A DNA stretch of 63,249 nucleotides, filler included, from Reticulomyxa filosa (lineage: Eukaryota; Protista; Foraminifera): assembly GCA_000512085.1 (NCBI GenBank). It is 22 parts of 22 records of this genome, joined end to end, with 100 filler letters (N's around TTAATTAATTAA, not from the genome) between each part and the next. Parts side by side here need not be neighbours in the genome. Positions count along the whole stretch, not along the records: positions 42,281 to 46,160 come from ASPP01019899.1; 21 more parts are not named here. The stretch is one strand, 5' to 3'. Below are positions 38,746 to 46,260 of the stretch, piece by piece (position 1 is the stretch's first letter; the number at the start of each line of letters is the position of its first letter). Below the pieces are notes generated by a model. That model was not told the origin of the DNA. It saw only the letters and a program-made list of their open reading frames with translations, and made no database searches. Made by a program: the position numbers and the translations under genes.

Positions 38746-39698
38746 GTTTAGTTGTTTCAATATCCCATATTCGAATGGTATTATCACATGATCCAGAACA
38801 AATTGTATATCCATTTCCACCAATTAAACCAATATGATTCATTTTATTATCATTTTTGTTATTGTTTGGTAATGGTGAAATATCAACACACCAAACATTA
38901 TCTTCATGTCCATTGAAAACATGCAATGATTGTGATGTCTCAACATCCCATAAACGAATTGTATTGTCACCAGATCCAGAACACAAATATCTACCACCAT
39001 TAAATGATGAAAATTGAATATCATGAACATAGTCTGTATGTCCATTGAATATTTGTAATTGTTTATTATGTTTGAAATCCCAAAAACGAATAGTTTTATT
39101 TGTTAGTGAAGAACAAATTACATTTGTACTATGACATTGATAATAATATGATGAAAATTTTACAGAAAGAACAGGAGATTGATATTCATTAGTTGATTGA
39201 ATTTTATTTTTGTTATCAATATCCCATGCATTAACAATACCATCATAAGATCCAGAACAAATGAATTGACAATCATCAAATGTTGAATAATCAATACTGC
39301 AAACATTTTCTGTATGTCCAGTGAATGTGTTGATTAATTTGGATGATGATCGAAATGTATCAAATATTAGGACAGGATATACCTATGTTAAATAAATATT
39401 TGAATATTTTTAATTTATGTTTTAAAATAAAAAATAAATGAACTAACATATTTGACAATGAGTTTGTCAAACTCATGAATCCATCCGAATTTGATTTGCA
39501 ATATTCGAATCCAATGTTGTATAATATCTTGAATCTTTTCTTCTTCAGACTGTTCAAAATATGAATTATATACAAAAAATAAAATAATAAAAAAAAGTGA
39601 AAGTTTTTAACTTTCCAAAAGTCTAATTCTTTATCTTTTTTTACAAATGTACTGGAATAACTGTCTTGACCATCTTTCTTCTCATATATTGTAGCCAT
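38746..39698 (-). CDS. WD40-repeat protein (3'-truncated), paralog of 36649-37402
   Basis: ATG at 39698; exon EEEKIQDIIQHWIRILQIKFGWIHEFDK; open WD40 exon below about 39384. Confidence 0.92.
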
Positions 39699-42382
39699 GT
39701 TTTGTTTTATAGCTTTAATCAATCAAGTTCAAAGTGGTTTTTTTTTTCAGATTAAAGTTTGTATTTTGTTATTTCATTGAATCAACAGTAGAAAAATCTA
39801 GTTTTACTGTCTTTGGCATCATTTATTTCATAAATTATATTCTCTTTAATTTGCAAAATACTTTTTTTGCGTTGCATTTTTCATAAATACAAAGTAAACA
39901 TTTTTTGTGTCATTTTTTTTTCGAAAGGGGCTAGACAAATTAAGTTGATAATAGATTTTATATTTATATAATAAAGCGAGACATGTCCATTGAAATGACT
40001 ACATCACCTTTGGACTTTACATGCGCAATTGTGTACAACAATCTGTGTTGTTCGGTGTTATATAAGAAGAAAAGTTATTGAACAAAATGGAAAAAAATTT
40101 TATAAAAAGACGTAAATGCATATTGGATGGATAGTGCCAGTGGAGGCATCATTATTTGGAGACTGATATCTGTTATTATTTGTTTTGAGATGAAAATTTT
40201 TTCATATTAATACACATTGATGTCCACTCTGTTCCAAAATCAATTGTAATTATGTAATCGAAATTTTCAGTATTTTTATGAGGAATATTAATTTGCATTT
40301 GCGTTGGAATGCAAAGCCATTCTTCTGTTGATATTTGTTAATTTTCTATTAACCCACATACAAATGAATAATTTTTACCTGTTGTATCTTCAATTTCTTT
40401 TTGATCCTGGGATATTTTTGCTTTTTCTGTTGATTTGTTTGATGTTTTAAAAAAAAATTGATAAATATTCACCTAAAATGAAATTTGTTATTGATTTTAT
40501 TGATTTCTTTTTTTTTTTTTTTAACTCTTCACTCAAAACGAATTTTTTTTATTTAATAAATGAAAAACTTTTTGATTTGTATATCTTTTTGAAGTGCTGA
40601 TATATATAATGTCAAAAAAAATATTTTTGTTGATCCATGTTATAACTAACTTGGAACTATTTTCTTTGCAAATTCTGTATTACTTTTTTTTATTGATAAA
40701 AAAAATTAGATGTTTTATTTTTCTTACAAAATATTTTTGTTCAATGTAAAAACATATTTTATTTACTGATTTGTTGCTAGTGATCTTTCAATAAATATTT
40801 CTAAGAATCAAAGATTGAACCAAAAAAAAATTAGAAACCATTTGTTATCAATACACCAAATGATTTCTGTATGTTCATTAAAAATATGTAGTAATTTAGA
40901 TGTTTCGACATTTTATCTTTAATACAGAATATAAATATAGATCAATTCAATGCCAGTATGTTGATTAAATATTTGAAATTACTTATTTTCTTATTGTCAT
41001 ATGATAAAAAAAACAAATAATATGTTATATAGTAATGGTATTGTGAAAATTTCAACACAATACACATTATTTGAATGTTTATACAACGATTGATCTAGAG
41101 CAAATGAGTTAACTACTATCAAATATTGGACAATCAATACTCCATATTCAATCTTTGCGTCAATTGATCATATCTTTAACTCATCATTACTCAATGATGC
41201 TCTATTGTCAATATTTATGCTAACAACACTGCACATTCCTCCTCCATTTACCATGCAATCATATGTTACTTTATCTGTTTTTTTTTAAAAAATTTAATTT
41301 ATATCTGTTCGTTACGTCAAAGAGTAGCAAAAAATTTTCATTCTCTTGATGGTATTCAATTAGTTCTCTATCTTCCATTTACTCATGAGTTAGTTGAAGT
41401 GAAGGTTTTAGAAATGAAAGAGGAAACAAATTTATTGTTCCACATTGAATCTTTGTATGAACAAAAAACAACCTCAAATTAATATTGGCCGTAAACATTA
41501 TTAGTACTTCCTTCAAAAATAGCATAAACAAAAGCGAATACTGGCACTCTGGCAAGAAAATTAACACACACACACAAAAAGACACTGTAGGAAGCTCAGG
41601 TACAGAAGTTGTAAGTGTAATACGACGACGAATACTTTTATTGAGAGCAGTCTCAATACAACAAAATTGATTTAAAGAAAGAATACTTAACAACAAGAAA
41701 AGAAAAATGATGAAAATAAATCAAAAAATGATAGTTCAATCAAAGGCCCAGTTTATGTTCGGGATGAAAATATGTGAATAAAGCTTTTTGATTTATCTTT
41801 TTTTTCCTTCATTAAAAATATCATGTTGCCAAAAACGTAAGATTGAATGTAAACGGATTTTTAAATAATACTTTTTAAACTTCTTTGTTTTCAAAGTGAT
41901 GTAAATGGATATAGAATATAATATTATTAAGAATATCTTCTCTTTGCAAATAGCCACAGCTTAGATAGAGCTATCTTAAGATGAACTATTCCTGAGAATA
42001 AAAGAATTTTTTACCTGAATGTATTCTTTTGAGTTATCGATCATTCATATCCTGCTTCAGGAAAAGATATTGTTTTTGATAATGCGCACTGTTGTCCTTT
42101 TTATTTTATCCTGTTTTGAATGTTCGATACTATATAAAAAAAAATTGCAAATAGACATCAAAAAAAAAAAATTTAAAAAANNNNNNNNNNNNNNNNNNNN
42201 NNNNNNNNNNNNNNNNNNNNNNNNTTAATTAATTAANNNNNNNNNNNNNNNNNNNNNNNNNNNNNNNNNNNNNNNNNNNNAAAAAAAAAAAAAATGAATA
42301 AACATTAAAACGTGTTAAAACAAAAAAAACTTTAACAATAATAACACATCTTTATATATTTGATATTTTTAATACTAATTAG

Positions 42383-42682
42383 AATGAAGAACGCACAATT
42401 GAATGCACCAATGGTCATCCGATATATGTAAATAAAGAAGGATGGAAAACGGTAAGCGGCGTTTCCCATGAAATGTATGATTTTAAAATCCAGAAACTAA
42501 AAGTTGGCGATCAAGTTTGTTTAGAAAGCGGACACCTTGCTCAAATTACCCACATTCATTCCACTTCTCTCAAAGAACCTGTCACCGTTTACAATTTGAC
42601 CGCGTCTAAGGGTCACACCTTCTTTGCCAATGGTTTGTTTGTCCACAATAAAGGATTTTGTGAAGGTTGCATCATTTTGTAA
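42383..42682 (+). CDS. last exon of a Hint (intein-like) domain protein ending in a CaaX box
   Basis: Acceptor ctaattag| then NEERTIECTNGHPIYV (block B TxxH), LKVGDQV, VYNLTASKGHTFFANGLFVHN (blocks F/G), then KGFCEGCIIL*. Confidence 0.88.
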   Translation, partial: NEERTIECTNGHPIYVNKEGWKTVSGVSHEMYDFKIQKLKVGDQVCLESGHLAQITHIHSTSLKEPVTVYNLTASKGHTFFANGLFVHNKGFCEGCIIL

Positions 42683-43331
42683 TTTGTTTCTTTTGTGTTT
42701 TTTTTTTTTGTGTTGCTCTTCCTTCCTCTGGTCTCTTTTCCACCTTTTTTGTTTTTTTTGACTGTCTTCATGCCAACTAGCACAGTTTTTTTTTGAAATT
42801 TGAAATTGACAAAATGGAAACCTACGGACAGCACAAGGAAATAGAAAAAACATTAATTTTTTGTTGGGTGTTTGAGATTAAGGAATGATTTTGAAATGTA
42901 ACTAGTTGCAGCATATTCGCATGTCAAATAACTTGTCATTTGAGAAATACTTTGTCTTTTAAATTATTAAGAAAAACAAGAGAAAAAAATAAGATCAATA
43001 GATTGACTGACTTTTCAAAAAAATTTGCAAAAGGTTCCAAAACATTAAATTTATATTTTATACTACGAACAGTTTGCGAATGCTAAGGTCTTCTTTGATT
43101 GCGCGTATTGAGAGGCGTAAATTAACAAAATCACAACAAAACAAAAGAGAATATGGTGCGCAGTGCAAAGTTCAACAACACAACAACAACAAAAAATAAT
43201 AATAAACGAAAGTAGGCAATGATTACACGAAGAACCAATCTAATGACCAAAAAAATAAAATAAAAATTTTTCATCATTTGATGGCCCCTGTTGCCTCTCT
43301 TTTTTTTTTTGTTTGTCCAAAACAAGTTTTC

Positions 43332-44740
43332 CTACATCTTAGCTTGTAAAGCAACAGCTTGTTTCTGTTTCATTAATTCCAATTGCTTTGAGCCCTTAAC
43401 CCATTCTCCTTCCTCAAATCGATCGGTTTCGTATCTTTCATACAATTTGACAAACCAGGGCCACTGAAACGAGTCCAATTCATTGTAGTTTTGCGTAATT
43501 TCTTCGCCTTTCTGGATATCTCTCATCGCTATACAATCCCAATGCACAACTGTTGATGGGTCACTTAACCACTTTCGATCACTTGGATTTGGCATGATAT
43601 CTTCCGCTCGTTTGCCATTTTCGAACTTATTTAATACATTGTAGTTGCTAATGTTAGCTCTGTTATTGTGGTTTACAAATCGTCCGATCGACATTTCTAT
43701 TAATACTACCTTATTTCGATTGAACAACAAACATACCACAACACACGAGGAGTTACGTATATAAGCCAACAAAAAAAAAAGGGGGGGGGGGATAATAGGG
43801 GGGGGGGACATTTTAATTTTCTCCTAAAAGAGAACTAACTATAAAAGGAAGAAGACCTTAAAAAAAAAAATTAAATTTTTTTTAAAGTTGTTAAAAAAAA
43901 AAAAATATGAGGCCACCCGCGCGCAAGTTACGAAAAAAAAAAAAAGGAAGGAAACAAAAACAAAAAAAAAATGTTTTTTTGTTGTTGTTGCTTACATTTG
44001 GTATCGGCCAATCATGCATACAATAGCAATAAGACAAAAAACGAGTTCGCTCTCCATCGTTCTCTAAGTTGCATAAAATTTGTTTGAGTTCAAGCTCGTT
44101 GAGCTGGAAGAAATCATCGCTGTTACAAAATTTCCAGGAATAAACAATTGTTCCCTTGGGAATGTATGCCTCGCTGAACACACCAAACCCCTTAAGCATA
44201 GGAACAACACGAATGCTGACAGGGACCTCAAACGTCAAACTGTCGCGCTTTGCGCACATAATCGAACCATTTCGATTGGCCAACACGTCGAAATGTTCGT
44301 AATAGGGTTCCATTTGGACACAGATTCGTTTCCACTTGGCTGCCACCAAATCGACTTTTTCTTGGGAACATACGCCGTTCCACTGAGGAAAACAAGGAGT
44401 TATCATCGTTCGATTATAAATCCTTGAGGATAACGGTGAATTTCCATTCCCACCATTGCGGTTGTTTTTTTTTGCTTCCATTGCTTCCGTTTGTTGCCGA
44501 AGACGTTACTGCATTACTGCCATTGGCACCATTACTGTTGCCACTACCGCCATTGCTGCCGCCATTATCGTTTTCAGGGGCTTGGACCACTACGAGTGTT
44601 GGGTAATAGGTGGAGAACGGAGTGCCTGCACTTAGCGAATTTGAGGTTCGTCTGCTCTTCAAATCATTTTCATTCAACAATTTCCGAGCAAGACTTTTCG
44701 GTAAGTGGCAAGGCTTCACCGTTGGGTTAAGTGCGCTCAT
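43332..44740 (-). CDS. SET-domain methyltransferase-like protein (apparent frameshift at an A9 run near 44465)
   Basis: KGFGVFSEAYIPKGTIV, RFVNH, IAMRDIQKGEEITQNY; intron at 43710-43995. Confidence 0.85.
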
Positions 44741-45569
44741 CAGACCAAAAATTATGTTGTGCAAACTTTGGGACAAAGAAAAACCTAAAAAAAAAAAAAA
44801 AAAAAACAAAACCCCACAACGTACCACTAAACAAGTTGATTTTGGACAACTGGGGCAAATGCCACACTGTAATGAAAGCTGTCTTGACTTGGTGAAGGAA
44901 TATGGTACTTTTTAATTTTTTTTTGTTGTGATAATGCTGAATTTATGAATAATTCCAATAACGTAGGTATTTCTCAAAACTAAGTGTGTCTTCTTCAAAT
45001 TGTTTTGAATGCATGACACTTTTACAAAGAAAAAAGTTTGTTTCTTCGTCTAGTTTTTTAATTTTTTAAAATTTTTTTCCTAGAACGTCCTTAAAGTTAT
45101 TTTTCCTAATTTCATCAGTGATTTTCATCGACTGAAATTATTCTTTCAGTATTAAAGATGATTCAAACAGCACATAAAAGTTGAGTGAGTAATAGAGTGA
45201 TACAAAAGAAAAAGGGCAGTAAACGACTGAGGGGTAGAGTCGAAAAAAAAAGAATTTCCCCCCCCCCTTTGGGAAATAGATATTGGCGAGGTCGACAACA
45301 ATGAAAGTGAGTCTGAGTCAGAAGAATTATCAAAATGCCCGAAAACAGCTGAGCAATCGCGTCATGACGAATTGAGAAAAATATTTTATCGAACTCATGA
45401 CCACAATGAATCTGGTACTTTTCTATTATTATTGTTTTATTATTGTACACACATATATTTCCTATTATGTGTCCATTTTGAATCTTACAAAAAAAACTTG
45501 ATTTTTAAATTTTTTTTTAAAAAAAAAAACGTGTTCGAATTTGTTCGATGGAAAAAAAAAAAAAAAAAA

Positions 45570-45947
45570 GCGAAAATATTGCGTCCAAGCCAACACCAAT
45601 TACTTCAAGAACATCAACAAACGCAAAACTATGAGTTAGCAACGCCAACTGGAGGGCCGTTAAAGAGTAGTAACGACAATGTGTTTGTGGTGTCCTCGAT
45701 ATCATTTCCGTTTATGTCGCCAATGAGTAGTTTGAGCAGTTGCGATTCCAAGGACTTTTCGTTAATGTTGCAGTCACGTGAGATCCTCAGCGATTATGGC
45801 AACGCCAACGAGGTTATAAAAGAAAAGGAAATTGAAATCGATATTGACAAACAACAACAAAAAAACGAAAAAGTCAGCAGCACGAATAGCGAAGCAAACG
45901 TGATCCATTACAACAATAATAACAATAGCAATAACAATGACAATAAC

Positions 45948-45991
<44 letters not shown>

Positions 45992-46160
45992 TAACGTCAA
46001 TTCGAATATAACAACAACAACGGCACATACCAATCCCAATGCGAATCTCGGCAAAAATATCAATGCAAGCGCGAACACAACAGCCAATGCCAATATCAAC
46101 ACCAACAGCAATATCAACAGTAATATCAACACCAATACCAACACCAATACCAATACCAAT
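45570..46160 (+). CDS. Asn-rich low-complexity protein fragment
   Basis: Open frame with poly-N and (TN)n tracts running into the gap; no domain recognised. Confidence 0.4.
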
Positions 46161-46260
46161 NNNNNNNNNNNNNNNNNNNNNNNNNNNNNNNNNNNNNNNN
46201 NNNNTTAATTAATTAANNNNNNNNNNNNNNNNNNNNNNNNNNNNNNNNNNNNNNNNNNNN

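Follow-up and report, generated by a model that had tools for sequence, protein, structure and literature searches.

A gene of Reticulomyxa filosa, whose last coding exon lies in the 63,249-nucleotide stretch of joined contigs that we analysed (the window), belongs to a family in which a Hint domain interrupts what is very probably a G-protein gamma subunit (Gγ). The Hint domain sits between the NPF motif and the CaaX tail, and it is followed at once by a lysine (Lys+1). We judge the chances a little better than even that the Hint excises itself and that its flanks are rejoined through Lys+1, which would yield a prenylated Gγ of ~70 residues rather than releasing a pheromone-like peptide. The architecture itself is real and conserved, and is apparently undescribed.

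The exon at 42383–42682 translates as NEERTIECTNGH...VYNLTASKGHTFFANGLFVHN-KGFCEGCIIL-stop, with the codons for the closing His and Asn at 42644 and 42647, followed by Lys at 42650, a first Cys at 42659, the CaaX Cys at 42668 and TAA at 42680 (Table 1). It corresponds to residues 141–239 of a full-length homolog, P0001, at 78–79% identity. Pfam PT-HINT scored 30.5 bits on the exon (cut-off 27.7) and NCBIfam intein_Cterm scored 25.8 bits (cut-off 15.6). An ending of the form C-a-a-L occurs in 1 of the 1135 stop-ended frames of at least 30 aa in the window, namely the Hint exon itself; any CaaX ending occurs in 7 of the 1135.

Table 1 Features of the Hint gene and its upstream linker, in window positions
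Feature	Position	Strand	Detail or evidence
Artificial linker, 44N-TTAATTAATTAA-44N	42181–42280	.	21/21 window gaps identical
Intron, 3′ part	42281–42382	+	CTAAT 42375–42379; acceptor AG 42381–42382; phase 0; contig begins at 42281
Last coding exon	42383–42682	+	99 codons and stop: 89 C-terminal Hint residues and 10-residue tail
Hint block B, C-T-N-G-H	42404–42418	+	Thr 42407, His 42416
Hint blocks F and G, VYNLT...FFANGLFVHN	42587–42649	+	TIGR01443, residues 69–89, above cut-off
Lys+1, first post-Hint residue, candidate nucleophile	42650–42652	+	Family conservation
Tail KGFCEGCIIL, predicted Gγ C-terminus	42650–42679	+	Translation, homolog layout
Upstream tail Cys, possible S-acylation site	42659	+	Translation
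CaaX box CIIL, predicted geranylgeranylation site	42668–42679	+	CaaX rule (PMC9678972)
3′ untranslated region	42683–42878 at least	+	X3 contig 12, without joint

Transcript-like contigs bear on both ends of this exon. Contigs from runs X1, X3 and X4, which come from three studies, switch to other sequence precisely at 42383, and the sequence joined upstream encodes CSIKYRNLTT, the homologs' Hint stretch before NEER, in frame. The splice acceptor AG at 42381–42382 is used. Positions 42282–42362 were covered by no contig of X1–X4. The runs X1, X3 and X4 were guessed to be RNA or were unlabelled; contigs of X1–X3 behave as spliced RNA, since a 286-base GT-AG-type stretch of a neighbouring SET-domain gene is absent from them. 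Two other runs, X21 and X22, matched the T-rich 3′ end only, and X14 matched two short coding pieces at a low share, on which no conclusion here is based. The original prediction, of a spliced Hint exon with a CTAAT..AG acceptor, block B CTNGH, an intein-type His-Asn end and then only KGFCEGCIIL and a stop, is upheld by the coordinates, the three runs joined at 42383, the two profile matches and the translation. It had also named splicing past this stop as an outcome that would refute it: no such joint was seen, X3 contig 12 running from 42383 past the stop to 42878 unbroken. An X3 contig differs from the window at 42656–42657, changing the tail Phe to Pro; among the rows listed, no difference falls on Lys+1, on either Cys or on the CaaL.

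The 5′ exons were not found in the window, where tblastn of five homologs matched the 42383 exon alone. The N-terminal partner had been described as lost in a gap. However, the 100 letters before the contig are no scaffold gap: all 21 gaps in the window, from 8263 to 61941, carry the identical linker, with stops in all frames. Since the upstream gap is artificial, the 5′ exons lie on another contig, and, the window being a chain of separate contigs, order across its gaps means little. Upstream of 42383 the X3 contig holds 411 bases and the X4 contig 511, compared with the 420 that P0001 would need for the 140 codons ahead of this point. Because only 30 letters of the window gene's own upstream sequence could be read, its N-terminal domain is assigned from homology and length.

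Among longer proteins, 14 homologs were identified, with identities of 63–78%. Two of the 14 carry a name (Reticulomyxa filosa 'YD repeat protein'), and the rest are JGI or Logan proteins from contigs of ~0.9–1.3 kb; six further family members, down to 35% identity, emerged when cluster representatives were scanned without a profile. An HN-K-x-CaaL end is present in 13 of the first 14 homologs, the remaining one being incomplete. Among 177 stored proteins, 31 have an HN-K-x-CaaX end (19 cluster representatives, whose clusters are related at 35–79% identity, and 12 further cluster members), and none of the 177 has such an end outside the family; one family member, P0014, is missing its C-terminal end. 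Conservation of a CaaX box after His-Asn, which had been proposed as a check on the gene, is thus borne out, with Leu as X.

Full-length members share one layout: a 62–63-residue N-terminal part, Cys1, the Hint, His-Asn, Lys and a tail of 6–11 residues. For 25 stored proteins we tabulated an NPF-like motif, Cys1, a Hint of 168–203 aa, HN, K and CaaX. With the Hint removed in silico, the flanks total 68–73 aa in 20/25 rows, and the spacing from NPF to the CaaX Cys is 6–10 residues in 20/25 rows; of the five rows outside the 20, three are start-truncated, one is an over-long gene model and one gives a 92-aa product. Within R. filosa, an X3 contig joins NLNT, the end of fragment P0177, to NEERMV, the start of P0030. 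P0177 begins with a Gγ-like domain and P0030 shares the exon boundary of the window gene, and in this paralog the N-terminal domain and the Hint exon are therefore linked directly by the contig. The R. filosa paralogs P0006, P0013 and P0030 have different last exons, and the gene model P0013 is without the NPF part and the block-B Cys-Thr, through model error or decay.

We consider it very probable, from its sequence, that the 62-residue N-terminal part is a Gγ, and it reads as one interrupted just after NPF. On this part alone, Pfam G-gamma aligns residues 10–59 with profile positions 5–59 of 69 at E 0.15 (12.6 bits, cut-off 27.1), leaving 10 profile positions for the tail, and it alone among five weakly matching Pfam families reaches the DP..NPF stretch. 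Five of 11 N-terminal parts match Pfam G-gamma (best E 0.025). Scanned as a whole protein, P0051 matches profile positions 8–67 at E 0.17; the same scan gave no G-gamma row for P0070, P0158, P0023 or P0177. These weak E values, 0.025–0.17, are all below cut-off. A profile of the N-terminal part is colinear with transducin gamma (7l0p_G, E 0.17; 6b20_C, E 1.1) through C-x-E-V, F/Y-V, DP and NPF, and these two are the only ones of 14 rows that span positions 13–59; the best PDB row, above Gγ, was yeast SRN2 (E 0.016). Coiled-coil families match the first helix as well as or better than G-gamma, DivIC in 9/11 parts (best E 0.0014) and Mis12 in 5/11. Helices are predicted at 2–28 and 32–45, followed by a loop; in the two most divergent members the motifs read DP..NYF and EP..NEY. 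No Gγ appeared in the 7 rows of a phmmer search of PDB with a single N-terminal part, nor among the rows of the full-length profiles A1 and A2. As an extended two-helix chain, the N-terminal fragment alone gave no usable fold match, with 1 in Foldseek (E 4.4) and a best Z of 3.8 in VIA-align, where all matches were long helices; residues 1–62 had no match in an Atlas search.

The Gγ layout is present: two helices, DP and NPF, a nearby CaaX and ~70 residues without the Hint. The C-terminal domain of Gγ starts at NPF and ends in a CaaX box, in which Leu directs geranylgeranylation (PMC9678972), and rhizarians have most components of the GPCR system (PMC3971589). Because the Gγ-like partner ends at NPF just before Cys1, the tail would be the cut-off Gγ C-terminus. 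At the level of sequence, the total length and the NPF–CaaX spacing that the tail supplies are an independent check on the Gγ identity. Compared with Gγ (PF00631, 7l0p_G), the family thus has the two helices, C-x-E-V, DP, NPF, a short linker and CaaX; it differs in the 170-residue Hint between NPF and CaaX and in scores below the family cut-off.

The C-flank after the Hint is 5–11 residues long and in some members shrinks to KCVIL or KGCCIL. Its prenylation is likely, as predicted from the conserved CaaL. A second Cys stands upstream of the CaaX Cys in 24/25 tails; P0070 and P0013 are without it and have Lys+1. Yeast and plant Gγ are S-acylated at an upstream Cys, and by analogy the upstream tail Cys fits S-acylation.

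The Hint domain has the Hint fold and blocks A, B, F and G. The model of P0001 has a mean pLDDT of 75, with 80–94 across most of the Hint. Its best Foldseek match is Tetrahymena BIL2 (E 1e-12, TM 0.84 of target), with the Clostridium BIL 2lwy second (TM 0.85) and inteins next; the matches to BIL2, 2lwy and inteins number 63 at E up to 0.001. Block-B C, T and H are invariant in 24/24 rows of A2, and the terminal HN is present in 23/24, which is every row with an intact end. Cys1, whose position for the window gene is outside the window, is invariant in 18/18 rows of A5. Both junctions are conserved down to 35% identity, and since no intact member has lost Cys1, block-B Thr/His or His-Asn, both appear to be under selection. 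Asn-driven cleavage is predicted and likely. Separately, Pfam AXH (ataxin-1/HBP1) is the top-scoring family on 12/12 homologs, above cut-off in 11; the match covers the N-terminal three quarters of the Hint (P0001–P0013), and the Hint profile also picks up ataxin-1 and HBP1 chains. On these sequence matches, AXH and Hint domains may be evolutionarily related.

Lysine at +1 is invariant, in 31/31 family proteins with intact ends and in 25/25 rows of the layout table. It is also common in related Hints: 264/355 HN-ending Hint domains from 148 representatives have it, a count inflated by a query ending in HNKG, and by majority it is the +1 residue in 88/118 proteins. Arg is the second commonest +1 residue, at 23/355. 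In prokaryotic loci, where the search pattern stops at HN, Lys+1 follows 46/79 block-G motifs. For comparison, the overall frequency of Lys is 5%. Since Lys+1 is typical of related Hints, it was probably already part of the Hint at insertion and probably contributes to the Hint's chemistry.

Multi-Hint proteins with HN-K(G) junctions are widespread in prokaryotes (P0029–P0176), and 137 of the 146 representatives with a Hint match have two or more Hints. The locus L182:1101–2003 runs from a signal-like start through a Gly-rich flank, Hint, KG and a second Hint to a K-Gly-rich stretch; L182 had been a candidate relative of the window gene (74% in the best segment), and was set aside as a bacterial tandem Hint. 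These tandem proteins share the HN-K(G) junction with the family, but they are bacterial or archaeal multi-Hint proteins with Gly-rich flanks, and none ends in HN-x-CaaX.

The original prediction took Lys+1 to exclude splicing. We reasoned otherwise: the lysine is invariant and common in related Hints, and BIL2 ligates through a lysine amine. BIL2 splicing is reported to yield a Lys-epsilon isopeptide bond, and BIL2 to conjugate ubl4, the N-flank, to ubl5 and a Ras GTPase (PMC8616854). The +1 residue of BIL2 itself is Met; its nucleophilic lysine would thus be elsewhere in the flank, and BIL2 is a precedent for a flank lysine, not for Lys at +1. A-type BILs can splice with no need of a +1 nucleophile, and often cleave C-terminally, according to PMC5874633; according to PMC7765530 they cleave and cannot ligate. 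The two reviews disagree on A-type BIL ligation.

Excision and rejoining would start from a host gene that encodes a likely Gγ with the Hint between NPF and the CaaX tail. An N-to-S acyl shift at Cys1 would place the final residue of the Gγ body, Asn in 22/25 rows, in a thioester. The side-chain amine of Lys+1 would then attack this thioester, giving a branched intermediate and an isopeptide product; alternatively, the alpha-amine of Lys+1, freed by Asn cyclisation, would attack to give an ordinary peptide bond. Asn cyclisation would release the 19-kDa Hint. Geranylgeranylation of the CaaL Cys could precede or follow splicing, and the resulting protein would anchor Gβ at the membrane. Several points weigh against this scheme. 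The available portions of the literature consulted for comparison hold no direct precedent for a +1 Lys nucleophile. Lys and Gly are in any case abundant in Gγ tails, and Lys+1 may have been retained for membrane affinity. The Gγ match is below the Pfam cut-off, with coiled-coil families competing. A stronger version, in which foraminifera build Gγ by lysine-dependent splicing with an isopeptide at Lys+1, as an obligatory or regulated step, and Lys+1 marks a widespread, undescribed class of Hint ligases whose simplest test case would be the 240-residue protein, is offered tentatively and probably claims too much.

If the unspliced precursor were itself the working Gγ, Asn cyclisation or thioester hydrolysis could act as a timer or switch that detaches Gβγ. 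The Hint termini are adjacent, so the body and the prenyl tail would remain close. Cleavage residues are intact at both junctions, +1 is not Cys/Ser/Thr, A-type BILs often cleave C-terminally (PMC5874633, PMC7765530), and membrane release of Gβγ is a known control point (PMC9678972). However, C-terminal cleavage alone needs no invariant Cys1, block-B Thr/His or Lys+1, the flanks hold exact Gγ length and spacing as though they were joined, and a 170-residue domain near the anchor might hinder contact with Gα or the receptor. We consider a working precursor of this kind unlikely.

It is less likely still that the Gγ-body thioester is passed to some other amine or thiol, such as a lysine of Gβ or another protein, or the upstream tail Cys acting as a relay, making the Hint a tagging or cross-linking device. 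Conjugation of ubl4 to ubl5 and a Ras GTPase by BIL2 (PMC8616854) would be a model for such a transfer, and the Cys upstream of the CaaX Cys in 24/25 tails could serve it. Yet P0070 and P0013 keep Lys+1 without that Cys, and a body handed on to a different protein would lose its anchor. S-acylation, as in yeast and plant Gγ, would explain the upstream Cys.

That the 62-residue part is an unrelated coiled coil, with the tail released as an a-factor-type lipopeptide signal, seems to us equally improbable. The sub-cut-off Gγ scores and the competing coiled-coil families leave room for it, as does the presence within a single species of paralogs whose tails differ (P0006, P0013, P0030), but DP..NPF, the helix pattern, the total length and the NPF–CaaX spacing jointly fit Gγ, and tails as short as KCVIL or KGCCIL would offer too little for a specific ligand. 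Pheromone-like lipopeptide release and simple detachment, the two readings offered by the original prediction, are not supported as the main explanation, the partner being Gγ-like and ending at NPF. It is marginally less probable again that the Hint is inactive and acts as an appended binding module, in the manner of the weakly similar AXH domain that tops the Pfam scores on 12/12 homologs (11 above cut-off), since Cys1, Thr, His and His-Asn are retained across 35–79% identity and BIL and intein structures rank first in fold matching.

Returning to excision and rejoining through Lys+1, we compared the family with known Hint systems. BIL2 of the Tetrahymena BUBL system (PDB 6y75, 6tmm) is the best sequence and fold match to the family Hint: it too is a BIL-type Hint of a eukaryote, has Cys1 and His-Asn, and is without Cys/Ser/Thr at +1. 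BIL2 ligates through a lysine amine (PMC8616854), which for the family Hint is a proposal. BIL2 is flanked by independently folded ubiquitin-like domains and has Met at +1, whereas the family Hint interrupts one small protein, has an invariant Lys+1 and is followed by a 5–11-residue CaaX peptide. With A-type BILs and BUBLs the family shares a short Hint, a His-Asn end and the absence of a +1 nucleophile and of an endonuclease, as it does with the Clostridium BIL 2lwy and PT-HINT (short, endonuclease-free, His-Asn end, no +1 nucleophile). It is not placed as BILs and BUBLs are, within variable regions or between domains that fold independently: BILs occur in variable parts of bacterial proteins that are not conserved (PMC5874633), whereas the family Hint occupies one fixed site in one conserved small protein, encoded by conserved eukaryotic genes with spliceosomal introns.

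In Hedgehog (Hog) proteins, as would be the case here, a Hint thioester gives a signalling protein its C-terminal lipid. Hedgehog, however, has cholesterol as nucleophile, a sterol-recognition region and no His-Asn end, whereas the acceptor in the family would be its own prenylated peptide, in the cytosol. The Hog-type Hint with a sterol-recognition region is absent, the protein ending 10 residues after HN, and Pfam Hint PF01079 scored 12.5–19.7 bits (cut-off 29.7). Class 1 mini-inteins share Cys1, block-B TxxH, the block-G HN and an intact host length and spacing with the family, which differs in having no Cys/Ser/Thr at +1 and in its host, a signalling subunit rather than a replication or nucleotide enzyme. 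By analogy, the family Hint would work like BIL2 and A-type BILs while placed like an intein, rather than being a Hog protein; for the ligation part of this comparison we again put the chances slightly on the favourable side.

A spliceosomal intron interrupts the Hint, and its position in the window gene matches that in P0030/P0177. Because the insert is fixed in a multigene family, is interrupted by an intron and has no room for a homing endonuclease, it looks domesticated rather than a mobile intein. The empty form of the host gene would be the ordinary Gγ of other eukaryotes. Searches that reached close relatives only found no Hint-free form among 3 and 4346 candidates, returning just two R. 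filosa fragments of Hint-bearing genes, and 0/593 pattern matches in metagenome contigs were Hint-free forms. A FastTree analysis of 105 Hints grouped 14/15 family rows with support 0.80, leaving P0070 outside. IQ-TREE on a 48-row subset, from which 7 close family rows and the majority of distant ones are omitted, separated 8/8 family rows from the rest by a branch whose support is only 59. A single origin of the Hint is allowed by these sequence trees, with weak support and no donor that could be named.

Our literature search, which covered neither subscription papers nor the R. filosa genome paper nor supplements, turned up no paper in which Hint or intein terms occur together with Gγ or prenylation. 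Of two surveys of eukaryotic Hint domains and inteins, the available parts of PMC2362128 make no mention of G proteins, foraminifera or Rhizaria, and those of PMC5784728 none of G proteins, Reticulomyxa or Rhizaria. Eukaryotic inteins are scarce, and most eukaryotic Hint proteins are without known function (PMC5784728). If the Hint does splice, protein splicing would operate inside a core signalling module, and Gβγ would owe its membrane anchor to a reaction that the protein itself catalyses, a counterpart in the cytosol of Hedgehog lipidation. Lys+1 chemistry would amount to genetically encoded isopeptide ligation, and Lys+1 dominates a large prokaryotic Hint subfamily. The 240-residue protein is a small soluble substrate with which to probe Lys+1 as a fourth splicing nucleophile. 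The Hint insert also explains the annotation of the family genes as 'YD repeat protein' or 'hypothetical', and Gγ surveys run at the Pfam cut-off would miss them.

Other genes in the window were characterised in less depth. The SET-domain gene (43320–44700, minus strand; Pfam SET E 0.00026, 21.8 vs 22.4 bits) is convergent with the Hint gene, and contigs of X1, X2 and X3 lack its 286-base GT-AG intron, 43995–43710. A long Asn/Thr low-complexity open frame occupies 45231–46208, at the contig end. The WD40-repeat gene at 38750–39606 (minus strand) was rejected as Gβ, with WD40_Gbeta at 53 bits vs 150; it is on a different contig from the Hint exon, across an artificial linker. Viral contigs scanned for a Gβ motif yielded 6 matching loci, but these were not Gβ. 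Two metagenome contigs, L032 and L067, carry a very divergent Gβ pair, which forms a long branch with support 100/100 inside the protist Gβ group.
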